DNA of 54,762 nucleotides from Desulfurococcaceae archaeon (GCA_038824035.1 JAWBBW010000008.1:1-54762); one strand, 5' to 3'. Counted from the first letter of the stretch, positions 4,301 to 19,204 are shown. Numbers and translations are program-made. The notes: generated by a model from the letters alone, not told the origin.

Positions 4301-7294
4301 TTATTCTATGACGAGTTCGCTTGATCTATGCACATAATACGGCTCTATTGATACCTCGACGAGCGATGCGTCATGGGAGACTATGTGCATCATAATCGTG
4401 ACCTCGTTAATACCTCTCTTGATCAAGTCATCGAATATGTAGAATTCTCTTTGCGGGTTTTCAACGCTGTATCTACCTATAAACTCTCCGTTGAAAAATA
4501 ACAGTGCCCTGAACCCCTGTCCCTTTAAACGTAATTTCAGAGGAGACGTGGTGATCTTGGCTGTGTTGATTTCAACAGGTATCTTAACCCACACAACTCC
4601 ACCGGCTTTGTCAAATAATCTCAGCGGTATTGTCGTTTTAATCCAGTTCTCATCCACCCCTTGTTTAAACCATTCTTTGTTTAATCCATAAATGCCTTTT
4701 TGTACAAACCAGTCTCCACTAAGTGCATATTGGTAATTTCTCAGAACTGGGAAGAGACCTCCTCTTTCCGAGAATACCGCGATTTCATTGATACCCTTTT
4801 TCATGTGATCCGTGATATCCATGGGCTTTATATAGGGACCAAGGTATTCTCCATTTACAAATACCAGTATACGTGGGTAGAAATTGCTGTGCACATGGGT
4901 GCCGAGATCTAGCACATATCTACCGTTTAATTTTTCCATGTGTATTCTCTTTACAAATAGCCCTGCTCGATCGATCGCAACACTCTCATCGTTAACTATG
5001 TCTTTGATTTTCCCGAGTACTTGGAGTATTGATTCAGGTCTCTCAATGAACATGGACATATCGAAATAAGGGCCGATCTGCGGGCGTGTATCAATATATA
5101 TCCAGTTCCTCAGCGGAATGGTATTTATCTCGCCGAGGTAGAATGGGTTAAGGATCCCATTGGGAACATATAGTACGCCATCATTTGGATGACCCGTTGA
5201 CTCCAGTATTAACTGGAACTCGTTAATGCCTGGTTTTAGATAATCGGTTAGATCCACCTCAAGGACGTGATATCCAGAGGAGACGTGTTTTCCATTCACA
5301 ATTAACGATGCGTAATCATTGATTCCCGATATAAATGCTCTCTTGTTCACCAACTTTTCATAGCTTTCTTCATCGATATTTATAATCACCGTGTAGAAGT
5401 AGTAACCATTTTCAAAGAAACCTGCTTTTTCAAGTGGTTGACAAGGCTGTATTGCTTTCATAATGTCTCTATGCGTTATAGGATCTTCTCGCATATATAC
5501 ACGATTATCGATATGTATAACGGGTTTTTCGACAATTTTCACGTCTTCTCTATCAAGCCTAGTAAAATACGCGTTATCACAGGGTTTTTCAAAATACAGC
5601 TCCCTGTTATTCATGAACATTTTCTTGATGGGCCTTGGCGTCAAGATAAGTATATCGCCGTGGCTTTTTTCATCGAGTTCTAATTCCAGCAATAGAGCGT
5701 TATTCTTGTAAGAGGTCTTTCCTATGAAATATAAATTAGAGATCAAGATCATGGGTGGATTCAGTTCGTCTATGAGCCATGTTCTCCCAGCTCTATCCCT
5801 ATTCGTAAATACCATGTAGAGAGTCTTACCACGTGATTCCAATGCCACCATATTATCAAGATCCCCGTGAACGTTTTCGACGATAACCCTGTTTCCACTT
5901 AAACTATATTTCACAAAGCCATGGACACACTTAATGTTCAAAGCGTCCTCAGCTTCTACTAGTGTCTCGGTCTTTTCACCTATATCACCATAGAACACTA
6001 GGAATGAGCTGTCTCCATGTATTTGTTTCAACAAAGGCTCAGCTGTACTGTATATTAGTTTAAATGGAGTACCTCGTAATTTATGATTCATCACCATTAT
6101 CTTGGCATATTTCAATGGAACTCTTATATCACTGTGCAGAGGTACGAAATCATCGTTAATTAATAATCTCTGGTTACATATATTGTCGCCAAGATTCCTC
6201 AACACAATGATCATTTCCCCATCATCATTTATCCTGGCAAAGAGCTTTGTGCAATCATATACTTGTTTAACAGCTGTTTGAACTGGCTTGGTCCTCGATA
6301 ATAAGTCCTTAAATGTATTTGCGAACGTGAAAACCCTTTTAACAGCGTAATATCTCTCTGAGAGCTCTCCCCATTCCCTTATACTTGCTTCATAGTCATA
6401 TGTTGTCGTGATGTATTTACCCGTATAATAACCCGGATTAGTGCCTCCATGAAACATGTAGATGTTTATGGCATTTAATCCCATACCTATGGCTGTTTTA
6501 ACCAAGATCTCTGTCCACGAAGCTGGGAAACTACCTCTACTTGTCGGTAAATACCCGTTTATCGTGGAGAACCAGCCCCCTTCAAGCTCCATGAACATTT
6601 TGAATAAACCCGGTTGAGACTTCATGTAACTTTCTAATTTTCTATCAAACCGTTCTATAGACCATGGAGCTGGGTAATCATCTATCGTGTTTGCCACAAG
6701 AGTGTTCTCTAGGAATGGGTTTTCATTGGTCACTATTGATATATCATCTACATCTATATACCTCTTAGCGACATCGTGTAATCTGAGTATATAGTCCTTA
6801 AATCCCCAGAAATATTCGTTCTCCACCTGTAATAAAACCACGGGGCCTCCTTTACTGATGGTGTATTCTTTGAGTATTGGCAATATCTTAGAATACCATT
6901 TCTCAGCGTAATACATATACTTATCATCCAGGGATCGAAGCCTTGCCGTTTCATTATATAGCCAATTAGGGTGACCTCCACTATCCCATTCTGAGCATAT
7001 ATATGGGCCAGGCCTAGCTATGAAATACATACCCAGTTCTCTAATTGTTTTCAAATAACTTTCAATATTCCTGCTAAAAGAACTAGCCACGTACCACTCT
7101 CTATGTGAATAATCATCAAAGACGTATATGTCTCTTAGTGGTTCGTGCCAATTCCAGGGAATATAACTGGATATGCAATTGAGCCCGGCTCTCTTGGCCT
7201 TTAAAACCCTGTCCTCCCAGAGGACACGCGGTGTCCTGAAGTAATGTATTTCACCACACAAGAGGACATGTTGATGTATGGGTTGATGTATCAA
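4301..7294 (-). CDS. GH35 glycoside hydrolase (beta-galactosidase-like) with C-terminal beta-sandwich domains
   Basis: GEIHYFR, YIPWNWHEP, RPGPYICSEW, LQVENEY (acid/base), MELEGGWF (nucleophile), YMFHGGTN and TTYDY. No signal peptide. Confidence 0.9.
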   Translation of the reverse strand: MIHQPIHQHVLLCGEIHYFRTPRVLWEDRVLKAKRAGLNCISSYIPWNWHEPLRDIYVFDDYSHREWYVASSFSRNIESYLKTIRELGMYFIARPGPYICSEWDSGGHPNWLYNETARLRSLDDKYMYYAEKWYSKILPILKEYTISKGGPVVLLQVENEYFWGFKDYILRLHDVAKRYIDVDDISIVTNENPFLENTLVANTIDDYPAPWSIERFDRKLESYMKSQPGLFKMFMELEGGWFSTINGYLPTSRGSFPASWTEILVKTAIGMGLNAINIYMFHGGTNPGYYTGKYITTTYDYEASIREWGELSERYYAVKRVFTFANTFKDLLSRTKPVQTAVKQVYDCTKLFARINDDGEMIIVLRNLGDNICNQRLLINDDFVPLHSDIRVPLKYAKIMVMNHKLRGTPFKLIYSTAEPLLKQIHGDSSFLVFYGDIGEKTETLVEAEDALNIKCVHGFVKYSLSGNRVIVENVHGDLDNMVALESRGKTLYMVFTNRDRAGRTWLIDELNPPMILISNLYFIGKTSYKNNALLLELELDEKSHGDILILTPRPIKKMFMNNRELYFEKPCDNAYFTRLDREDVKIVEKPVIHIDNRVYMREDPITHRDIMKAIQPCQPLEKAGFFENGYYFYTVIINIDEESYEKLVNKRAFISGINDYASLIVNGKHVSSGYHVLEVDLTDYLKPGINEFQLILESTGHPNDGVLYVPNGILNPFYLGEINTIPLRNWIYIDTRPQIGPYFDMSMFIERPESILQVLGKIKDIVNDESVAIDRAGLFVKRIHMEKLNGRYVLDLGTHVHSNFYPRILVFVNGEYLGPYIKPMDITDHMKKGINEIAVFSERGGLFPVLRNYQYALSGDWFVQKGIYGLNKEWFKQGVDENWIKTTIPLRLFDKAGGVVWVKIPVEINTAKITTSPLKLRLKGQGFRALLFFNGEFIGRYSVENPQREFYIFDDLIKRGINEVTIMMHIVSHDASLVEVSIEPYYVHRSSELVIE

Positions 7295-7358
7295 TGCACA
7301 ACACCTTTATAACGTATTGTAGATTATTGTAGATTTAGTAAATATGTAAAATAAATAA

Positions 7359-8399
7359 ATGGGCATAACCATTCCTGGCTTTGAGCGCTTCACTGTAAAG
7401 GGTTGTCATATGGATAAACCGGGATATCTGATATGGATATTCACTGCTATCTGTAACTTAAACTGCCTCCATTGTTATACGTATAGATTTAGAGGCATAA
7501 AGGAGCTCAGTTTAAGCGATAAGTTGAAAATAGCGAGGGAAATAGGCGAGCTGGGCGTGGAATACGTGAACTTGACTGGTGGAGAGCCATTGATACATCC
7601 CCATTTACCATTTCTACTCAGAGAGCTAGATGAATACGGTGTTGAGAAAAGCGTTGTGACAAATGCGACAACTGTGAATGAAAACGTGATTAACCTACTC
7701 GTCAAGACAAATACATACGTATTCGTAACCATAGAAGGCCCGAGGAACATTCATGACGAAATAAGGGGTAGAGGGGTATTCGACAAAGTCGTTGAAAACA
7801 CTAAGTTGATCAAGAGTAGAGTAGGGCGTTTCTCCGTTGTCACGACCATTAATAGGTTAAATTACATATATACGGAGAGAATGGTAGATCTAGCCATAGA
7901 CCTAGGTGCAGACGAGTTAGCGGTATTGCCCGTCATGCCTTCTGGGAGAGCACTTGAGACAAAAACATACATCGAGCCCTTTGAATACCTCTTAGCCCTT
8001 CTAAGTATATCTCGGAAAGCCCGTTCCCGTGGACTGCCGATCTCAGCGTGGTGCACTCCATGGGCCCCCCTGTTAAAGGGGCTGGAAGGAGTTGGTTTTT
8101 GGTTTTGCAGGGAGATGAATGGCATGGACATAGACCCTGCTGGCAATGTGTTGCTATGTGATATACTTGATTTCAAAATAACCAATGTCATTGAAAAAGG
8201 TGTTCTAGGAGCGTTTAGAGAATTCAAGGATAATTGGTTAGTAAAATCAGTTTCAAATCCATTGAAAATGCCAAGCGAGTGTGCGAAATGTGATATATCA
8301 CTTGGATGCCGTGGCGGTTGTTTCGCAAGGTCATATATATTAAAAGGGGATTTAAACGCCGGAGACCCGCTTTGCCCGGTCATTAGCAAATTGCTGTGA
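7359..8399 (+). CDS. Radical SAM protein with SPASM domain (start probably ATG 7410)
   Basis: CNLNCLHC, TGGEP, and C-terminal C...IDPAGNVLLC...CAKC...CRGGC...C. Confidence 0.88.
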   Translation: MGITIPGFERFTVKGCHMDKPGYLIWIFTAICNLNCLHCYTYRFRGIKELSLSDKLKIAREIGELGVEYVNLTGGEPLIHPHLPFLLRELDEYGVEKSVVTNATTVNENVINLLVKTNTYVFVTIEGPRNIHDEIRGRGVFDKVVENTKLIKSRVGRFSVVTTINRLNYIYTERMVDLAIDLGADELAVLPVMPSGRALETKTYIEPFEYLLALLSISRKARSRGLPISAWCTPWAPLLKGLEGVGFWFCREMNGMDIDPAGNVLLCDILDFKITNVIEKGVLGAFREFKDNWLVKSVSNPLKMPSECAKCDISLGCRGGCFARSYILKGDLNAGDPLCPVISKLL

Positions 8400-8427
8400 A
8401 CAATGTAAGGCACAAGGTTTATTCGGT

Positions 8428-9288
8428 TTGCTAATCAAACTAGCATTTAGAGCAGGTATGAGAAAAGCCGCCTCAACACTAATAATTGTAATGGCTGTGA
8501 TTGTCGTAGTGATTGTTACAGTACAGTATATAATGGTGATCAGAGAGAAACCGGCCTTATTCATATATACAGATCCATCGGCCTATCCATTGATAAACAC
8601 GTTGGCGATTTACTATGAATTGAAAAACGATGTGGATTTAAGGGTTATCAGCACGGCATTACCCAGCTTACTGGCCAGGATTATTGCTACAAATACCGGC
8701 GACATAATCGTGACGCCGGATCACATGTCTATGATAAAGATCATGGAGCATGGGCTTGTCCACAATGAGACTGTTAAACCACTTTCACTCGTCATACCAT
8801 CTCTATTGGTTAACAAGGGCGTTACACGACCTATAACAGGTCTAAGTGATCTTGTCAAAAACGTCCATGTGATCGGGGTGGTTGATCCATCCTATTCATT
8901 TTTTGGCGAGATATCTATTCAATTACTTATTGAAAGCGGGGTTTACGATGATGTGGAAAACAAATTAGTCGTTTACCAGGATATCCCTCAACTGGCTAGG
9001 CAAGTTGCACTAGGAGTTGTTGACACCGCGATATTGCCTAGTTTCACACATAATTGGTATCCAGAGGACACTTATGTTGTCTGGTTGACTCAGAGTAATG
9101 TATCGATCCCAGTAACATGTCAAATGATCGGTGTTTTGAAGTACACAAGTGACTATGAGAGAGCTAATAGTTTCCTGAACTACGTGGTCGAGTTCGTTGA
9201 GAAAGGGTATGCCTCGCGATTAGGTTATGTATTAAGGGGTGTCGAGGAATACGTGGCGAATACGCTTCCATCAATATGCCGGATTTAG
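8428..9288 (+). CDS. ModA-like substrate-binding protein, membrane-anchored, divergent (start probably ATG 8458)
   Basis: N-terminal hydrophobic anchor; LLARI...GDIIV, IGVVDPSYSFFG and QVALGVVDTAI resemble ModA-family segments. Confidence 0.6.
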   Translation: MLIKLAFRAGMRKAASTLIIVMAVIVVVIVTVQYIMVIREKPALFIYTDPSAYPLINTLAIYYELKNDVDLRVISTALPSLLARIIATNTGDIIVTPDHMSMIKIMEHGLVHNETVKPLSLVIPSLLVNKGVTRPITGLSDLVKNVHVIGVVDPSYSFFGEISIQLLIESGVYDDVENKLVVYQDIPQLARQVALGVVDTAILPSFTHNWYPEDTYVVWLTQSNVSIPVTCQMIGVLKYTSDYERANSFLNYVVEFVEKGYASRLGYVLRGVEEYVANTLPSICRI

Positions 9289-9362
9289 TCAACAAGAAGT
9301 GGTAAACAATGTGCACAGAGCTAAATTAGCGATGATGATCAAATTTATGAAAAAGGGTGAAA

Positions 9363-10487
9363 TCAATGACTACATATCACTCCTTTACATACCTTGATTA
9401 CATCGCTTTTTTCGCCTTCTTCGATCACTATGACACTGATCTCGTTATCCCTATCCACGAAAATAGCATTGCCATCTTTCCTGAAACAGGCATGATCTAA
9501 GTCACGGCTCGGCATCACATCATCACCTGGATACGCATCAATGATCTTTATCGGACCATGGCCAGACCTAGCAGTTAGGTCGATTCTATATATGAGAACG
9601 CCCCAGTCGAGGCTTGTCTCATCATTCACAATCGGCCTCCTACTCTCCACTCCATATGCAGAGTTCTCGTTGATAGGTATTATAACGAGCTTTAAACCAC
9701 CATTGATTTCTATAGGGGTTAATTCGTATTCATATACCCCTTTTTCGGAGACCACCTCTACTTGGTCACTATCGATCCACCCTAGTCTCAATTTATGCCA
9801 AGCCATGAAATCGGGCGCGTGCCCAGCGATGTAGCCCATTATATCCCATCCACCAACATAATAATGTATATCTCTCCTACCAGCTATGTTCAATGGTTCA
9901 TAAGCGTAGAGGTCTGGTAAACCCATTAAATGACCCGTTTCATGTATTAATACTTTGAAACCCCATCTCCACATATCTTTCCCAAAAGTCACTGCATGCG
10001 AGATAACCTTGCCCTTGGAAATAACAGGGCTATGACGGCTACTTATGAATGTGGGCGAGTACTGTATGTTGATGGCGTTTCTCGATGGCACTATGTAAAA
10101 CGCGTCGTAAAGCGATATATCATGATCATTACTAGCCAGTTCTACAGCTTCATTCACGTATTTAGCGTGGAATTCCCATGTCAATTTACCCCACTGGATA
10201 TTGTATTCATAGTCATTTCTACTCATACGATACCATTTATCCGAGATCTCTATTTCCAGGTTTAATTTACCATATGACGATGCCTCGAACCAATCAACCG
10301 CTGGCAAAAACCACCTGTAATAAGCGAGGGGGTCTCGATACCCAGCAGGGGCTTCTGTGTAAGGAGCGTTTGGGAAATCCACGGTTATCATGAGTGTTCT
10401 CACATTGCCAGCGGTCTTCATGGCATATTCCATATATCTTCTCGACGATCTGATCCAATACTCCTTCGAGAGATATTCCTTCTCCAA
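9363..10487 (-). CDS. M6 family (immune inhibitor A-like) zinc metalloprotease domain protein
   Basis: LMITVDFP, SSYGKL, HETGHLMGLPDLY, GGWDIMG, AWHKLRLGWI and GVLIYRID. Confidence 0.85.
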   Translation of the reverse strand: MEKEYLSKEYWIRSSRRYMEYAMKTAGNVRTLMITVDFPNAPYTEAPAGYRDPLAYYRWFLPAVDWFEASSYGKLNLEIEISDKWYRMSRNDYEYNIQWGKLTWEFHAKYVNEAVELASNDHDISLYDAFYIVPSRNAINIQYSPTFISSRHSPVISKGKVISHAVTFGKDMWRWGFKVLIHETGHLMGLPDLYAYEPLNIAGRRDIHYYVGGWDIMGYIAGHAPDFMAWHKLRLGWIDSDQVEVVSEKGVYEYELTPIEINGGLKLVIIPINENSAYGVESRRPIVNDETSLDWGVLIYRIDLTARSGHGPIKIIDAYPGDDVMPSRDLDHACFRKDGNAIFVDRDNEISVIVIEEGEKSDVIKVCKGVICSH

Positions 10488-13028: not shown

Positions 13029-13373
13029 TCAGGGGTTTTCAAGAATTGATCTAAGCATTGACTCGTATCTCTTGTTAATAGAGTAGAACTTGTACCTCCT
13101 GTGCTCAGAAACGTTGACAACATATGTCTGTATTAATCCAAAATCCTCTAGTTGTTTCAAAGCTCTCTCCACTTTCTCGTAATTACAATGCGATCGACGT
13201 GCAATGGCCCTTATACTTAACGCTTCCTTGACAACGAGTTCACGCAATATCCTTATTCTGATATCATCGCTGAGTAAATACATGATCTTTTTAACCAGGT
13301 CGTCCAAAATACCGGGATATATTTCAGCACTATTTTTGATATCTATCTTAATCTTTTTACCCTCACTAGCCAA
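13029..13373 (-). CDS. Winged-helix (ArsR-like) transcriptional regulator
   Basis: RIRILRELV...LSIRAIARR...VERALKQLEDFGLI...RYKFYSIN; GAGG SD before TTG. Confidence 0.8.
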   Translation of the reverse strand: MASEGKKIKIDIKNSAEIYPGILDDLVKKIMYLLSDDIRIRILRELVVKEALSIRAIARRSHCNYEKVERALKQLEDFGLIQTYVVNVSEHRRYKFYSINKRYESMLRSILENP

Positions 13374-13623
13374 GTTTTAGCCTCTCAAAATCATTATGTG
13401 GCTACGAATGTTCCCCCAACATTACCATGGCTACATAGTGGTGTCGGGAGACATGTTTTCTTATGGCTTAATGCCCTTAATAAATAATCGTGAAATACGC
13501 TAAATCGTGATGCATTGGGTTTAAAATTACGTAATCCTCAAATTAGATAGAAAACCGATCTCTTTGTTAAACGCAAGTGAGTTCCTGATAACTTTACATG
13601 GTCCACGTGTCTATTTAAAGCAT

Positions 13624-14670
13624 TTATTTCCTACTTCCATCGACTTGTTCATACAAGTATGTAACTTCCTCGTCTAGGACATAGAAAACATGCTTATCAC
13701 TTGTTTTTACATGTATTACTGGCTTAGCCAAGGTCTCTGAGACCTTTACCAGTTGTTGAAAATCCTGTACCTTCACCACATTGTTACCTGTCTTATTGAG
13801 GATTTCACATGCTTCCACGATCACTGATCTATACCTCCTCGTTATCCTTGAGATATTGCCTGGCTTTTTACGGTATGTGTACATGATATTAACCCCCGTG
13901 AAAATTACCATTGCAACCGAGATGACGCATGTGGATATAATTGAAATGTATTGGAATAGCCTTGTACTTATGTTTACAAAGCCCAGAGGTATCGTTGTCT
14001 CACTTATAACGGTGTTTTTCTTAACACTCGTGGTACTTATCTCTCTCTGTGAGAACTCCATTATCTTCCCAGATAGATCGATCGTTATTTGAAGCGAATA
14101 CGGGAAATTAACGCTCTGTGAAATACCCATTACCTCAAAATCTGTCTTAGCGTTACAGTCAATGACTATTATGTACCTTGTACTGGAGATCTCTATTTGA
14201 GACGATATATTCCTAGCCAGCGATATCAACCAAGGTATATCGAGCTCTATTACATATTGGGCTATATTTTCACTTGTTCTCACCGTGGTTGAATTCAATA
14301 CCTTGCTCCACACCTGCAAATGGCTAAGGATAACCCTTATCTCCAGGGTATTGTTTATGCTTGATGCCTGGGGCATTGAGTTAAACATATAGGTGGTGTT
14401 AACGATCACCTTGTCGACGAGTTTTAGGAAAACCTTGCCTGGATTCAGCAAAGTGCTTGTATCATATACGGTGTTTGGGTAGAGAATGACAATGTAGTTG
14501 AAAACACCCCTAGTGGTATACGTGTAGAGTACCCTCTCCTGTGTTATCTCAACTGGTTGTTGATATGCATATATAGTTGTGAACAACGATGTGATGAACA
14601 AGAACACGATTACTCCGATGGCTATTTTACTATGAAGTATTTTGTTAAACATCTTTACACCACAATACAT
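13624..14670 (-). CDS. DUF5305-like membrane protein (two TM segments around an extracellular beta-rich domain, plus a cytoplasmic C-terminal domain)
   Basis: Hydrophobic segments near aa 15-35 and 240-262; C-terminal VQDFQQLVKVSETLAKPVIH...HVFYVLDEEVTYLY pattern. Family assignment is from memory and from context next to an S26 peptidase. Confidence 0.7.
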   Translation of the reverse strand: MYCGVKMFNKILHSKIAIGVIVFLFITSLFTTIYAYQQPVEITQERVLYTYTTRGVFNYIVILYPNTVYDTSTLLNPGKVFLKLVDKVIVNTTYMFNSMPQASSINNTLEIRVILSHLQVWSKVLNSTTVRTSENIAQYVIELDIPWLISLARNISSQIEISSTRYIIVIDCNAKTDFEVMGISQSVNFPYSLQITIDLSGKIMEFSQREISTTSVKKNTVISETTIPLGFVNISTRLFQYISIISTCVISVAMVIFTGVNIMYTYRKKPGNISRITRRYRSVIVEACEILNKTGNNVVKVQDFQQLVKVSETLAKPVIHVKTSDKHVFYVLDEEVTYLYEQVDGSRK

Positions 14671-14673
14671 CTC

Positions 14674-15873
14674 CTAGATACCTCTATATCTAGCTTTAAC
14701 TAAATACATAGCGATCATCGCCAGGCTTATTAACAACAATAATGAGAAATATACAGGATTGCCTCTGAGGGCTTGTTGTATATATAGAGAGATATATCCA
14801 ATCAAAGGTATCTTGAAGACAACTTTTCCAATGACATTGTCCATTGACACGGGGTCTAGATCTGGCGCGTTGTTTGCATCGCCCTTTGTCACGATGTATC
14901 TGTATGAACTATCGATCTCCACGACTCTGTGCACGATCACGCCCCATTGGGATACATAAGCCACTGCATCACCTACGCCTATATCTCTACAATGAGTGCA
15001 GAGCACGACTAGGTCCCCTATATTCAGAGTTGGTGACATGCTTCCACTCGATATAACTAATAATCTGACACCTAGATAGCCCTGGGAGAGCATAGTTATT
15101 GCTACTATTGCTGAGAAATAAGTTAGCAATTTGATTACGTTCCTTGACTCAACATATATGTCTTTAATGCCATGTCTAAACCTAGTCCTATGATATGGTA
15201 GAGAGATATAGTAGCCTATCAGTGGTATCATGGAGTTAAAGGAGCCCTCTATGAACCAATCAAGTCTAGGTAGAAATGGAATTATCCTGGTAAACAACGA
15301 GGGCACTAGGTTGTAGATAATGGATGGTGTTAAACCATGGTTCAACACTATGAAAGTGGAGAACATGTTGGCTAGGAATGATGGAATGAGATACCTATAA
15401 GTTATTTTCAAGCTCTCTATCGACATGGATAGAGATAACAATGGGTATGGAAACGACGCTAATGACCATGTGATCAATATTGGTAAACACATAGCCAGGG
15501 AGCCATGGGTATACCTGAGCTTATCCACGACATAGGTCCTGAGAAATTCCAAAGCCAATACCCTGGATACCACGTGAACAATGTTGACAAGTACTCCTGG
15601 TAAACTAGTGGAGTAAGGAGTTAGGCCAAATCCGGCCCAGAGACCGAGCATCATGTATATTGACATATAACTAAGCGTGAACGCCGAGATAGTCTGTGTA
15701 AGAGGCGTGTACTTGAAGTAATCTCTCACCGTGTCCCAGGTCAATGCTATTACCGAGAGATAGGAAATGACTTGTACATAGTAGAAGAAAACACCGGTTG
15801 CTATTTTATAGAAATAAGTGACAAGATACATTAAGACAAGGACAAGTATTATCGAAAGAGTTTTCATAACCAT
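14674..15873 (-). CDS. SipW/Sec11-type signal peptidase I (S26B) fused to an N-terminal multi-pass membrane domain
   Basis: VISSGSMSPTL (catalytic Ser), GDLV, IVHRV (His), TKGDANNAPD and VIGKV..KIPLIGY, preceded by about 260 hydrophobic residues. Confidence 0.9.
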   Translation of the reverse strand: MVMKTLSIILVLVLMYLVTYFYKIATGVFFYYVQVISYLSVIALTWDTVRDYFKYTPLTQTISAFTLSYMSIYMMLGLWAGFGLTPYSTSLPGVLVNIVHVVSRVLALEFLRTYVVDKLRYTHGSLAMCLPILITWSLASFPYPLLSLSMSIESLKITYRYLIPSFLANMFSTFIVLNHGLTPSIIYNLVPSLFTRIIPFLPRLDWFIEGSFNSMIPLIGYYISLPYHRTRFRHGIKDIYVESRNVIKLLTYFSAIVAITMLSQGYLGVRLLVISSGSMSPTLNIGDLVVLCTHCRDIGVGDAVAYVSQWGVIVHRVVEIDSSYRYIVTKGDANNAPDLDPVSMDNVIGKVVFKIPLIGYISLYIQQALRGNPVYFSLLLLISLAMIAMYLVKARYRGI

Positions 15874-15941
15874 TGATTAAAACCACGTCTCCTTGATTGG
15901 AGGATTAAGAAGAAGGGTTTAAAAAACATTTGGATCAAGTT

Positions 15942-17330
15942 TTACTTCTTGACAATCTGTATTATGCTGGTCCCAGTTGCTGAACCCGTATTTGCCGCTA
16001 TATTGTAATTTACCTCGAAGTTCTTGTCCAAGGTATCCCATATGTGACCTATCAATCCATGGGGCTCTTTATCAGAATCATAATCTGTCGGCTTGAATTT
16101 TATATATATCAGCACTACGGCGTCTGAGGAAAGCGGGTTTGACAACGTTATGTTCATGATCGCCGTGTTTAACGTGTTGTCCACACTATATTCATATTCC
16201 CCATAGCCTAACTCCTTGATTACGCACATCGTCGTGGTGTTCAACATGTATACACGTATCTTGCCATCAAACCCATCCTCTATGTTGAACTGGTAATCGT
16301 ATGTAACGGTAATGTTTACATTATCTAATCCTGTGCCATTGATCCACAACACATGATAGAACGCTCCCGGTGAGACGCTCACCACTTTTCCCTCCTTACG
16401 TACCTCAGCCCTTATTGAATCCAATGGGGTCCCGAGTTTAACTGGGCATTTCTTGAAATCAGTGTTTGTTTCCCTGAACTCCCCCATTATATTTAATCCT
16501 GGTAGTGGAGGCGGTGGCGGAGGTAATGGTGGTCGCATTATCCCGAAGTTATTGTTAATACTTGATTCTCCAGCGCTAATAGTCCTTGTTAGGGTTAATG
16601 CTGTGGTGTTCACATATCCTGTTGGCAACAATATTTTGATTATGTATGTTCCAGGATGTACTGGGAAATAGTAGTATCCATCGCTGTTTGTAAACGTAGA
16701 GACAATGACTATGTTGCCTTGTTCCAACAATATAGTGACACCCTCTACGGGGTCTTCACCGGGATCCCATATCCCGTTTTCATTTGTATCGTTCCATACA
16801 TAGCCACTTATCGAGGAATACGCCTCGTTCCACTGTATATAAGTTATGTCAATGTCAACGACATATTCAGAGCTTTCATTGGCGCTTTGCAAGACCCCTA
16901 TTATTATTTCGTAGTGAGCTAAATCGCCTGGGTGCAGTTGTTGGACACTTGGTGGGTTGAACACCACTTCGATTTCACTGGGTATTTCCGTCATATTGTA
17001 GAAAGGCCCCACCACTGGTATTGTGCCGGTGTTCACTATGTCGAAGCCGATTCTACAGCCATAACCAGGGTATCCATTCGATATATGTATTTCCAATCGA
17101 TCAGCATTATCACTTGTAGTAATGGTATATGTGCAATTGCCAACGTCTTTTCCCTCGGCTTCATCGAATTCCTCTACAACGATGTTTTCATAATCCACGT
17201 TGACTTCGCCCGTCTTCACCATGGCGTTTAATCTCAAGGTACCCATCCACATAGCCATTGAAATGGCTATGGCTGTAGCAAGCATTAGAACCACGGCTGA
17301 GACTAGTAAGAATGTGTTGCTTTTACCCAT
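15942..17330 (-). CDS. TasA/AbpA-like secreted fibre subunit 3, extended by an SdrD-B/Cna-B-like domain, a polyproline linker and an unknown C-terminal domain
   Basis: Signal peptide, then MWMGTLRLNAMVKTGEV; GKDVGNC, NGYPGY, NTGTIPV, QLHPG and YIQWNE; then SISGYVWNDTNENGIWDPGE...TNSDGYYYF...PGTY...NFG; PPLPPPPPPLP. Confidence 0.75.
   Translation of the reverse strand: MGKSNTFLLVSAVVLMLATAIAISMAMWMGTLRLNAMVKTGEVNVDYENIVVEEFDEAEGKDVGNCTYTITTSDNADRLEIHISNGYPGYGCRIGFDIVNTGTIPVVGPFYNMTEIPSEIEVVFNPPSVQQLHPGDLAHYEIIIGVLQSANESSEYVVDIDITYIQWNEAYSSISGYVWNDTNENGIWDPGEDPVEGVTILLEQGNIVIVSTFTNSDGYYYFPVHPGTYIIKILLPTGYVNTTALTLTRTISAGESSINNNFGIMRPPLPPPPPPLPGLNIMGEFRETNTDFKKCPVKLGTPLDSIRAEVRKEGKVVSVSPGAFYHVLWINGTGLDNVNITVTYDYQFNIEDGFDGKIRVYMLNTTTMCVIKELGYGEYEYSVDNTLNTAIMNITLSNPLSSDAVVLIYIKFKPTDYDSDKEPHGLIGHIWDTLDKNFEVNYNIAANTGSATGTSIIQIVKK
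16501..16533 (-). repeat. Low-complexity CCN tract encoding a polyproline linker
   Basis: Plus strand GGTAGTGGAGGCGGTGGCGGAGGTAATGGTGGT, encoding PPLPPPPPPLP on the minus strand. Confidence 0.8.
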
Positions 17331-17418
17331 GATGATATACCTTGTTCTACTCTATATCGGGAATGGGGGATGGCTACGGGGAGAAAAACCACTAGATCAT
17401 TGGATATGTACATGGCTT

Positions 17419-18102
17419 TTAACCTCCTCGCAGGGTCATGGCTGGGACGCTGTATTCGTTCCATTGTATTGCTTCGAGTTGTACTGTGAACGTCAGTGTC
17501 GAGCTCTGCGGAGCATCCTGTAACACTGTTACATCGAAGCTTATGTCGGCACTTTGACATGGATGTAGTTGTACACCGAAATTATTGCCCCACCATATCA
17601 ATAAATCTGGTTTATCATCGCCTGTTAACTCCAATTCAACACCTTGCTGCAACTCCTGCTCATTCAGCTCATAGAATTCTTGTCCATCAATTATTATTCT
17701 CCATATCTTTATCGGTATTGTTCCATCATTGTGGACCTTGAACGCTATGTGTGTATAATACCATGGGTATACATTATGCAAGGTCACATTCATGGTATCG
17801 TAATCTCCATCACCATCACTATCTATTAACGTGACATCGGCGCATCCAACATCTTTATCCAACTGCACAGCTCCAGGTAATGGTAGATAGGTCGCATTCC
17901 AATCATTTCCCCTGAAAACTCCATATCCAGGTTGTAATCCACAGGCATCTAGATATATCACTGTTCCAGACACTATTTCCCAGTCCACTTCGCCGGTCGA
18001 GATCGAAGAATTCACTCTTAACGTTTCACTCCACATAGCTAGTGCTAGTATTGCTGATAGTGATATGAGGATGATGGCAGAAAAACCTAATATCTTATTC
18101 AC
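17419..18102 (-). CDS. TasA/AbpA-like secreted fibre subunit 2
   Basis: Signal peptide ending ALA-MWSETLRVNSSISTGEVD; DKDVGC, NVYPWY, NDGTIPI, QLHP and EAIQWNE; SD AGGTG before GTG. Confidence 0.75.
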   Translation of the reverse strand: MNKILGFSAIILISLSAILALAMWSETLRVNSSISTGEVDWEIVSGTVIYLDACGLQPGYGVFRGNDWNATYLPLPGAVQLDKDVGCADVTLIDSDGDGDYDTMNVTLHNVYPWYYTHIAFKVHNDGTIPIKIWRIIIDGQEFYELNEQELQQGVELELTGDDKPDLLIWWGNNFGVQLHPCQSADISFDVTVLQDAPQSSTLTFTVQLEAIQWNEYSVPAMTLRGG

Positions 18103-18118
18103 AGTTCACACCTTATCT

Positions 18119-18703
18119 CTAGGGCACTTCATTCCACTGTGCGAACATTAGCACGACTTCGCCAGTATAACTGGATAGCTCTTCGGCTTCCTGGGGTATC
18201 GTTATTTTTAATATATATGTTGAATTCTCTCCTGGGTGGATCTGCGTGTTTTCTGGTATCTCCAACTCGGCCATTATTGGCTCATCGAACTCGACACTAG
18301 AGCTATACAGCTTAACAGGTATTGTGCCAACATTGTCTATTACTAGATAGACCTCTACAGCGTAGCCTGGATATGCGTTTAACAAATTAACAGCTAGCTT
18401 TATAACGTCTCCCTCGTCATCCATTGTTTCCACTTCAATGACACATGAAGCCACATCTTTTCCTTCCTCGTTGTGGAACCCTTCAGCCTGTGGGTCCGGG
18501 CCGGTATCGCTACAATACCAATCCGAGAACTTGACATCGACTTCTCCTGTCTCCACGGTTACATTTAATAGAAGTGTTTCACTCCACATTGCCAATGCCA
18601 TTCCAATTATTGCCAGCGCTAAGATAGGTATAGCTAGGGTTTTTTTACTGATATCACTTTTCACACCTACTAACATAGATGTTAGAAATATTAATGAATC
18701 CAT
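18119..18703 (-). CDS. TasA/AbpA-like secreted fibre subunit 1 (start uncertain; see finding on the A7 tract)
   Basis: KKTLAIPILALAIIGMALA-MWSETLLLNVTVETGEVD; GKDVASC, NAYPGY, NVGTIPV, QIHPG and FAQWNE. Confidence 0.75.
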   Translation of the reverse strand: MDSLIFLTSMLVGVKSDISKKTLAIPILALAIIGMALAMWSETLLLNVTVETGEVDVKFSDWYCSDTGPDPQAEGFHNEEGKDVASCVIEVETMDDEGDVIKLAVNLLNAYPGYAVEVYLVIDNVGTIPVKLYSSSVEFDEPIMAELEIPENTQIHPGENSTYILKITIPQEAEELSSYTGEVVLMFAQWNEVP

Positions 18704-18723
18704 GCATACATGTGTATCAGTTA

Positions 18724-18731
18724 TTTATAAA
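18724..18731 (-). promoter_or_regulatory. Putative TATA box of the fibre operon
   Basis: TTTATAAA in the AT-rich region upstream of subunit 1. Confidence 0.5.
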
Positions 18732-18859
18732 TACTCATTACAAATATTTGGATATATCGCCTTTAATTTATGGTTATTCCCATAGTCATTTTCCATGTCA
18801 ATCAATTTGTTTAAAAACATAACTCATTTCTTAGATAAACTGGTTTTTATAACTTAATC

Positions 18860-19204
18860 TCAACAAGGCTTTTGGAAAAAGTGTTTCAACAATTCCTCGA
18901 GAGTTCTCTTAAACTCAATGGGGTCTTCGAGGAATAACTTAGCCAGTAATCCGGCATCGTGACCTCTCCCCATATCGCTTAATACTGGTTTTAAAATCAA
19001 TTTCTCGACAATGAACTCAACTACTCCTGGCTCATTATATCTAAGCAACAGGGTGGCGAACTTACCTGGCTCATCCAGTAATAAGTCTATGCACTCCTTG
19101 TTAAAGGAAACCAGGCAAACACCGTTCAACATATTTATGAAACCAGGTGCCACATCCTCCAAGTGGTTGACAATGGCTCTCTTAGCCCTGTTTCTCCAGC
19201 TCAG
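18860..19204 (-). CDS. Small hypothetical helical protein (TTG 19162, or SD-positioned CTG 19204)
   Basis: The frame is open upstream to CTG AGC TGG AGA..., with GGTG 7 nt before the CTG. Repeated LL.EP.KF / LF.EDP.EF motif. Confidence 0.6.
   Translation of the reverse strand: MSWRNRAKRAIVNHLEDVAPGFINMLNGVCLVSFNKECIDLLLDEPGKFATLLLRYNEPGVVEFIVEKLILKPVLSDMGRGHDAGLLAKLFLEDPIEFKRTLEELLKHFFQKPC

Follow-up and report, generated by a model that had tools for sequence, protein, structure and literature searches.

What kind of surface structure is built by three tandem secreted proteins encoded in a 54,762-nucleotide (nt) stretch of DNA from a Desulfurococcaceae archaeon (hereafter the window), and which of the genes beside them take part in its assembly? 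The genes in question lie in the stretch from 13029 to 19204, in the numbering of the whole window that is used throughout, which holds seven open reading frames (ORFs), all on the minus strand. Three of them encode paralogous subunits, here called A, B, and C, and these are followed along the direction of transcription by genes for a signal peptidase (SPase), a DUF5305 protein, and a small winged-helix protein. Our analysis indicates that this is very probably a locus of the abpX type, making an extracellular matrix or adhesive fiber without a chaperone or usher. It is a new example of a type of system that has already been described and not a new system.

The nature of the fiber is given by subunits A and B. 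In phmmer searches of the PDB chain sequences the sole protein matched was AbpX, represented by five chains of structure 9sj2 and by the self-complemented construct 9rhp, and the matches to 9sj2 had E values of 7.8e-7 for subunit A and 2.4e-4 for subunit B. Both alignments begin at Trp2 of the chain, where WSETLSL of 9sj2 is paired with WSETLLL in A and WSETLRV in B. A profile built from 44 sequences of the subunit A family (the A2 profile) extended the match to chain residues 2 to 143 of 163, with an E value of 9.2e-14 and no other significant match, through an alignment that is patchy and of low identity. AbpX is a matrix protein of Pyrodictium abyssi that polymerizes without chaperones by donor-strand complementation (10.64898/2026.01.04.697558), and its homologs are reported to share 30 to 35% identity with bacterial TasA proteins (Nat Commun 2025, PMC12518558). 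Judged by this homology, subunits A and B are members of the AbpX clade of the TasA superfamily. The original prediction had been of a TasA-like fiber, and that proposal stands through AbpX and not through any direct sequence or Foldseek link to TasA, AbpA, or CalY. No gene for a sortase, archaeosortase, chaperone, or usher turned up within the locus or among the flanking genes inspected, and a donor-strand fiber independent of sortases and chaperones, which had also been proposed, is the most likely reading.

AbpX comes with features that can be looked for in its relatives. In the P. abyssi protein Trp2 acts as a clamp and Glu4, Asp18, Asp46, Asp48, Glu52, and Glu142 bind three calcium ions, and the marks of the family are an aromatic residue at position 2, an acidic one at position 4, an isoelectric point (pI) of about 4, and a content of about 15% Asp plus Glu (10.64898/2026.01.04.697558). 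Subunits A and B both carry these marks, each with the sequence MWSETL, a low pI, and an acidic composition. Cleavage of subunit A is predicted between ALA and MWSETL, leaving a mature protein of 156 amino acids (aa) with a pI of 4.05 and 19.9% Asp plus Glu; the same cleavage in subunit B gives 205 aa, a pI of 4.05, and 14.6% Asp plus Glu. Equivalents of the calcium site can be placed in A at Glu42 (Glu4 of AbpX), Asp56 (Asp18), and the loop Asp95-Asp96-Glu97-Gly-Asp99 (approximately Asp46 and Asp48). The AlphaFold2 (AF2) monomer model of A has a mean predicted local distance difference test (pLDDT) score of 84.7, with eight confident strands at residues 57 to 189, while the donor-strand region, residues 41 to 55, is unstructured with a pLDDT of about 53. 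The AbpX monomer is likewise reported to have a beta core and an unstructured donor strand (10.64898/2026.01.04.697558).

The three subunits are clearly paralogs. B and C are 35 to 36% identical to A (36% for B), and 41 alignment columns are invariant across all three, including MW..TL, TGEV, KDV, YP.Y, N.GTIP, Q.HP, and QWNE, so that every motif by which three tandem secreted paralogs had first been proposed is among them. Each begins with a hydrophobic signal segment that ends in Ala-Leu-Ala (A and B) or Ser-Met-Ala (C) just before the Met-Trp pair. Subunit B differs from A by two insertions and by an acidic loop, DSDGDGDYD, that resembles a DxDxDG motif. Database searches returned 146 relatives of subunit A at E values of 1e-3 or below, among them homologs from Ignisphaera aggregans, Thermosphaera, and Pyrodictium delaneyi. 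Across the 1.33-Mb source genome, which is 99.7% complete, the A2 profile matches only subunits A, B, and C, and the cleavage and donor-strand signature with TGEV is confined to the same three proteins; nine other matches to the regular expression are without TGEV and look random.

The start codon of subunit A deserves a comment, because homologs are about 178 aa long and the TATA-box-like element TTTATAAATA lies only about 24 nt upstream of the ATG at 18703; the true start is probably the ATG at 18676 or the GTG at 18664. In a 22.8-kb contig from a hot-spring metagenome (run X1, depth 109), similarity to subunit A is limited to short conserved pieces within window positions 18305 to 18592, which are separated by a stretch of equal length that has diverged. 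An A gene of this diverged kind seems to belong to a far more abundant relative in the same sample.

The fourth gene encodes the peptidase. It scores above the cut-off of the archaeal signal peptidase I model TIGR02228 (E 1.1e-25; 90.3 bits against 51.85) and well below that of the SipW equivalog NF046067 (E 1.6e-16; 60.4 bits against 190), and is therefore SipW-like and not SipW. Within its catalytic domain (residues 272 to 365, approximately), Ser278, His315, Asp332, and Asp338 are invariant in an alignment of 34 homologs, and the protein thus fits the Ser/His S26B type that had been expected after the subunits on the same strand. Two further TIGR02228 genes are present in the genome, a canonical ORF of 157 aa on contig C7 and one of 370 aa on contig C21, from which it follows that the peptidase of the locus is an extra, dedicated copy. 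What had been called a dedicated SipW is accordingly a dedicated SipW-like S26B peptidase, and the assignment to SipW itself is dropped. Deletion of tafD in Haloarcula hispanica abolishes Tafi and the processing of TafA (PMC11821415), and it is this analogy that provides experimental support for a need of a dedicated peptidase here.

The peptidase is unusually long. Hydropathy gives about 10 segments that could span the membrane, with about eight before residue 230, another at 250 to 270 that precedes the catalytic domain, and the last at 373 to 392, and the SPases linked to AbpX are described as having ten transmembrane (TM) helices instead of two (10.64898/2026.01.04.697558). A Protein Atlas search with the N-terminal 245 residues gave no usable lead (scores of 0.89, to unnamed clusters). 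The 370-aa TIGR02228 protein (E 1e-16) on contig C21 belongs to a second peptidase-linked locus (L068, G000:C21:4000-20000, positions 5713 to 9446, minus strand) and has an N-terminal catalytic domain and a long C-terminal extension. It is preceded by a 194-aa secreted protein and followed by a 686-aa multi-TM protein, neither with a sequence match in Pfam, NCBIfam, or the PDB, and the locus may represent a second, different fiber system.

The linkage of these genes was examined in other genomes. When species-representative genomes were scanned with a degenerate pattern, 60 loci were found, almost all of them in metagenome-assembled genomes (MAGs) of Desulfurococcales, Pyrodictiaceae, Zestosphaera, or Ignisphaera, and one in a Clostridia MAG; their six-frame ORFs were searched with the proteins of the window and then with hidden Markov models (HMMs) rebuilt from the matches. 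Among the 135 subunit ORFs of these loci, Trp occupies mature position 2 in 132, Asp or Glu occupies position 4 in 104, and the core ends in QWNE in 104. A long SPase of about 400 aa, with both the multi-TM and the catalytic parts, is encoded on the same strand in 45 of the 46 loci that extend at least 1,500 nt beyond the last subunit gene. In L044, the one exception, DUF5305 lies at the upstream edge of the locus, an alternative order found in L040. A synteny survey of the link between subunit homologs and S26B peptidases had been put forward with the original prediction, and the link is what we find. Six loci (L004 to L007, L015, and L016) have an extra short SPase of canonical length (ORFs of 141 to 163 aa) about 2 kb upstream of A, on the opposite strand.

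The survey also shows how the subunits are combined. When subunit ORFs were typed by their best BLAST score against A, B, and C of the window, a B-type gene came immediately after an A-type gene in 55 of the 60 loci. The remaining five are two that run into the contig end after A, two with A followed by C (L013 and L055), and the bacterial locus. BLAST scores of B-type proteins against the window's B (about 100 to 340 bits) are mostly higher than those of A-type proteins against A (about 70 to 240 bits). Across L001 to L059 the "minor" B-type subunit is thus at least as conserved as the presumed shaft subunit, which is odd for a mere minor subunit.

This strong conservation would be explained if subunit B were an obligatory nucleator or terminator of the fiber, a functional analog of TapA, instead of a minor subunit within the shaft. 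The nearly constant place of B-type genes behind A, their higher BLAST scores in most loci, and the insertions and acidic loop peculiar to B all fit such a role. B nevertheless retains the full donor strand, with Trp2 and Glu4, and the core motifs, so that it could sit anywhere in the fiber, and P. abyssi assembles AbpX without any B (10.64898/2026.01.04.697558), as L013 and L055 have A and C with no B. B is also longer than A, and length alone raises bit scores. We regard an obligatory role for B as possible and somewhat on the unlikely side.

The fifth protein matches PF17231 (E 3.1e-15; 56.6 bits against a cut-off of 29) and is, as had been proposed, a DUF5305-like protein with two TM segments, at residues 10 to 36 and 237 to 266. 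These enclose an ectodomain of about 200 aa and are followed by a tail of about 80 aa in the cytoplasm; positive charges lie on the inner sides, and the same layout is given for the DUF5305 family (10.64898/2026.01.04.697558). The gene is present in 38 of the 39 loci with at least 2,800 nt of flank, L051 being the one without it. An uncultured member of the Desulfurococcales provides a natural fusion (L056:11343-13682, plus strand), in which a single frame of 780 aa matches TIGR02228 at residues 260 to 376 and PF17231 at 573 to 776. DUF5305 is inferred to be an assistant of the peptidase both in the AbpX preprint (10.64898/2026.01.04.697558) and in the papers on haloarchaeal Tafi fibers (PMC11821415, PMC12337348), in part because fused SPase-DUF5305 proteins exist, and all full-text literature matches to "DUF5305" were on Tafi or AbpX. 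A predicted complex of the SPase and DUF5305 of the window returned ipSAE interface scores of 0.00 and 0.00 in a run without controls, which speaks neither for nor against binding. The fusion and the pairing of the two genes fit an accessory role at least as well as that of an anchor, the former being the role presumed here.

An anchor is what had originally been assigned to DUF5305, and we found no evidence for it. A membrane anchor or assembly platform whose ectodomain holds the base of the fiber, instead of or besides a peptidase accessory, would suit a protein with two TM segments, an ectodomain of that size, and so general a presence in the loci, the more so as archaeal abpX loci are described as being without the SLH and LPXTG anchors of bacterial loci (10.64898/2026.01.04.697558) and no further ORF in the genome has a donor-strand signature that would let it act as an anchor. 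The DUF5305 gene is always beside the peptidase gene, however, and starts here 3 nt after the peptidase stop; DUF5305-SPase fusions occur in L056 and, according to the papers, in bacteria and archaea; and Tafi, for which peptidase assistance is likewise inferred, has a different proposed anchor, TafF. AbpX of P. abyssi, moreover, forms free lattices (10.64898/2026.01.04.697558) and may need no anchor. On balance we consider an anchoring DUF5305 unlikely and prefer the peptidase accessory.

A bolder version of the same idea joins the peptidase and DUF5305 into a machine for assembly at the membrane, the archaeal equivalent of an usher, which would cut the pre-subunits, hold the donor strand, pass it into the base of the fiber, and keep the fiber attached, with B as the obligatory initiator or adapter at that site. 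Such a machine would give a purpose to the eight additional TM helices of the peptidase and a reason for the near-universal pairing of its gene with that of DUF5305, and it would account for archaeal loci having no other anchor gene. We judge it distinctly improbable and keep to processing by the peptidase, with DUF5305 as its probable helper.

Subunit C is the decorated member of the set. It consists of an AbpX-like core (residues 27 to 170, approximately; pI 4.05, 15.3% Asp plus Glu), an SdrD_B domain at 173 to 244 (PF17210, E 2.4e-16), a polyproline linker at about 268 to 277, and a C-terminal beta domain at 280 to 462. The AF2 model of C (pLDDT 77.9) shows three beta domains and a low-confidence linker. 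Its nearest Foldseek match is SdrD (8.8e-11), followed by TIE, UafA, EbpB, Ace, FnBPA, Als, and SpaA, which are multi-domain surface adhesins and Gram-positive pilins; the TM-scores are low, at about 0.2, and the resemblance is therefore one of domain strings only. Seven relatives were found for residues 170 to 462 by a word-indexed search, and in an exhaustive phmmer search with the C-terminal domain, 44 of 1.84 billion representatives had E values of 1e-3 or below. Only 7 of these 44 proteins contain an AbpX-like core recognized by the A2 profile, which makes the C-terminal domain a rare module, carried mostly by other secreted proteins at their C-terminus; a Protein Atlas search with this domain gave no usable lead. 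One protein of 461 aa (P0150) has an A-type core, with donor strand MWSETL, fused directly to this same domain, and the domain thus occurs on A-like subunits too.

A C-type subunit of at least 440 aa is present in 5 of the 60 loci (L001, L002, L022, L013, and L055), and the decorated subunit is lineage specific. Tip components are reported to vary among lineages (10.64898/2026.01.04.697558), and a tip or adhesin is the natural role to presume for subunit C.

The sixth gene codes for a small winged-helix protein above the cut-off of PF25212 (HVO_A0114; E 1.3e-8, 34.9 bits against 27.6), and a regulator gene, part of the system as first proposed, is indeed present. Matches to Lrs14 (NF040939; 22.9 bits against a cut-off of 90) and Sta1 (23.3 bits) are both below their cut-offs, and there is an ArsR-like resemblance too. 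The gene is probably its own transcription unit, and a homolog occupies the same position in 3 of the 60 loci (L013, L022, and L055). A scan for sigma-70 promoters and terminators, which is unsuited to archaea, found fewer promoter-like sites than in shuffled sequences. Twelve public sequencing runs from six studies contain part of the stretch; eleven are recorded as hot-spring metagenomes and the other, X10, is metatranscriptomic and recorded as a sediment metagenome. Contigs of X10 cover 16175 to 18618 (part of C, all of B, and most of A) and 13222 to 13430, the 5' part of the regulator gene; they are 90 to 97% alike to the window and therefore come from a close relative. None of the X10 contigs listed falls on the SPase or DUF5305 genes, which is not evidence of silence. 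X10 gives a weak hint that the locus is transcribed in a close relative.

We propose the following mechanism. The three pre-subunits would be exported by Sec and cut after the A-x-A motif by the ten-TM S26B peptidase, probably together with DUF5305. The cut would expose a new N-terminus, M-W-S-E-T-L, as an amphipathic strand that enters the open groove in the beta-sandwich of the next subunit (donor-strand complementation), with Trp2 as clamp and Glu4 available for calcium; the acidic loops probably bind Ca2+ as well. Subunit A would build the shaft, and subunit B, conserved beside it, would be a minor subunit, initiator, or adapter. Subunit C would form a lineage-specific end piece bearing SdrD_B, a polyproline spacer, and the rare beta domain for adhesion, and the winged-helix protein would regulate expression.

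Several observations weigh against this picture. The A2 profile retrieved none of the TasA, AbpA, and CalY chains from the PDB, and none of the three subunits matches Peptidase_M73 (PF12389, TasA/camelysin) at E values up to 1, a family touched by 2 of the 44 members of the A family with a best E value of 0.14. Pfam offers no model of its own for these subunits. There is thus no direct sequence link to TasA, and the placement in its superfamily comes from the literature. Foldseek with the full-length model of A found nothing in the PDB at E values of 1e-3 or below, and its top 50 matches are generic beta-sandwiches such as adaptin and GGA ear domains, with AbpX, TasA, and AbpA absent; the signal-peptide helix and the disordered strand of the full-length model may have harmed the search. 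For two calcium ligands of AbpX, Glu52 and Glu142, the HMM alignment shows no clear equivalent, and Asp18 corresponds to Lys in the family consensus. The donor strand of C, MWMGTL, keeps Trp2 and has Gly in place of an acidic residue at position 4; in the 12-sequence C family this position is Gly or Asn in the clade of the window (6 of 12) and Asp or Glu in the rest. The ten TM helices of the peptidase are counted from hydropathy, with two of the eight N-terminal segments weak, and the X10 contigs, although from an RNA library, show neither the strand nor proof of transcription. Strand exchange among the subunits of the window is predicted from homology, and in this organism the system is known from its genes.

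It is very improbable, all the same, that the three are surface proteins which are secreted as monomers, bind calcium or resemble cohesins, and merely have a SipW-type signal peptide in common, as the generic Foldseek matches, weak sequence matches to cohesin domains, and one homolog named [quoted passage not shown] might suggest, given a significant homology to a solved donor-strand fibril over nearly the whole chain, donor strand included, a near-invariant Trp2, and an N-terminal strand that is unstructured in the monomer model.

The donor-strand fiber proposed here can be compared with several known systems. The architecture of the locus had been thought uncharacterized, and this view has to be given up: AbpX was named, and the neighboring SPase I and further AbpX/TasA-like genes noted, in 2025 (Nat Commun, PMC12518558), and a preprint of January 2026 solves the fibril and reports that abpX loci of archaea encode major, minor, and tip subunits together with a ten-TM SPase I, a DUF5305 protein termed "SPase accessory," and, occasionally, regulators, with Zestosphaera tikiterensis as an example (10.64898/2026.01.04.697558). 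The AbpX fibril of P. abyssi (9sj2) shares with the window the WSETL donor strand with Trp2 and Glu4 and a pI of about 4, and its gene is directly followed on the same strand by a TIGR02228 SPase gene. As depicted in the preprint, the P. abyssi locus is minimal, with abpX and the SPase only, whereas the window adds three paralogs, DUF5305, and the regulator, and only part of the AbpX calcium site is clearly matched in the window.

The locus of Z. tikiterensis NZ3 (L012) has the same order as the window: an A-type and a B-type subunit are followed by a third one, then by a long SPase, and last by an ORF at the place of DUF5305; this fifth ORF matches the DUF5305 HMM built from the loci and has no Pfam match at E values of 0.01 or below. 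AlphaFold3 (AF3) is reported to predict that the major, minor, and tip subunits of Z. tikiterensis co-assemble by strand donation (10.64898/2026.01.04.697558). The two loci come from different species, as their A subunits are 56 to 58% identical, and this rules out that the window is simply the preprint's own example. The third subunit of Z. tikiterensis, of 329 aa, has no match to the SdrD_B or C-terminal domains of the window's C, and no winged-helix homolog was found in its locus.

More distant systems share the logic and differ in the parts. The tapA-sipW-tasA operon of Bacillus subtilis also combines a secreted beta-sandwich subunit and an S26B peptidase and makes donor-strand fibers, but the peptidase of the window is below the SipW equivalog cut-off and has about 10 TM segments against 2, there is no TapA homolog, the subunits fail Peptidase_M73, and DUF5305 is not named among the three genes of that operon in the portions of the sources consulted. 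The haloarchaeal Tafi system (tafA to tafG; PMC11821415, PMC12337348) resembles the window in having a dedicated SPase (TafD), a DUF5305 protein (TafG), a regulator (TafB), and major and minor subunits with a tip protein, for which strand donation has been modeled or solved. Its subunits, in contrast, have twin-arginine translocation (Tat) signals and belong to another clade, TafD has four predicted TM segments and a different architecture, and TafF is the proposed anchor; the subunits of the window reach 12.1 bits against TafE model NF052522 (cut-off 155, E 0.12). AbpA/AbpB of Pyrobaculum calidifontis (PMC9245690) form a chaperone-free donor-strand fiber of the TasA superfamily, like that proposed here, and are encoded in an operon with a winged-helix regulator. 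No dedicated signal peptidase is reported near that operon, whereas the window has one, and the TapA-like AbpB has no counterpart in the window.

The features of the locus are listed in Table 1. Along the direction of transcription the gaps are 16 nt between A and B, 88 nt between B and C, 68 nt between C and the peptidase gene, and 250 nt between the DUF5305 and winged-helix genes. The family-less ORF of 100 aa is found upstream of subunit A at a distance of 156 nt. Only in the Ignisphaera locus L013 (1 of 60) does a homolog occupy this position, whereas L032 has two copies elsewhere, and because the position is conserved in that one locus, membership of this ORF in the fiber system is doubtful. 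The neighboring genes are metabolic and encode a raffinose-synthase-like glycosidase, an amidohydrolase/dihydroorotase-like enzyme, aspartate carbamoyltransferase, a short-chain dehydrogenase, and an aminotransferase. Elsewhere in the window, an ORF of 374 aa at 9363 to 10487 (minus strand) has an HETGH motif and the look of a zinc metalloprotease, with no Pfam family at E values of 1e-5 or below.

Table 1. Features of the abpX-type locus, in the order of transcription (positions in the numbering of the whole window).
Feature	Position	Strand	Remarks
ORF of 100 aa, family-less	18860-19162	-	Upstream of subunit A; no Pfam/NCBIfam match
Archaeal TATA-box-like element TTTATAAATA	18722-18731	-	Read from the sequence, function inferred; upstream of subunit A
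Subunit A, AbpX-like, presumed major fiber subunit	18119-18703	-	194 aa as listed; AbpX homology
Subunit B, AbpX-like "minor" subunit	17419-18102	-	227 aa; AbpX homology
Subunit C, decorated, presumed tip/adhesin	15942-17330	-	462 aa; AbpX-like core plus SdrD_B
S26B-type signal peptidase I, long multi-TM N-terminal extension	14674-15873	-	399 aa; TIGR02228
DUF5305 two-TM membrane protein	13624-14670	-	348 aa; PF17231
Winged-helix transcription regulator, small	13029-13373	-	114 aa; PF25212

Particular to the window are the tip, with its SdrD_B domain, polyproline linker, and rare domain, and the counts obtained in the survey; the supplement of the preprint may show similar tips. The 60-genome survey gives numbers where the preprint, in the part available, shows representative neighborhoods only (10.64898/2026.01.04.697558). 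The locus points to questions on the purpose of the peptidase's eight additional TM helices, the role of DUF5305, the attachment of the fiber to the cell, and the conservation of subunit B. In archaeal biofilms the main protein scaffold increasingly appears to consist of donor-strand fibers of the TasA superfamily, and to these the locus adds a complete five-gene example, with a regulator, from an uncultured hot-spring lineage of the Desulfurococcaceae.

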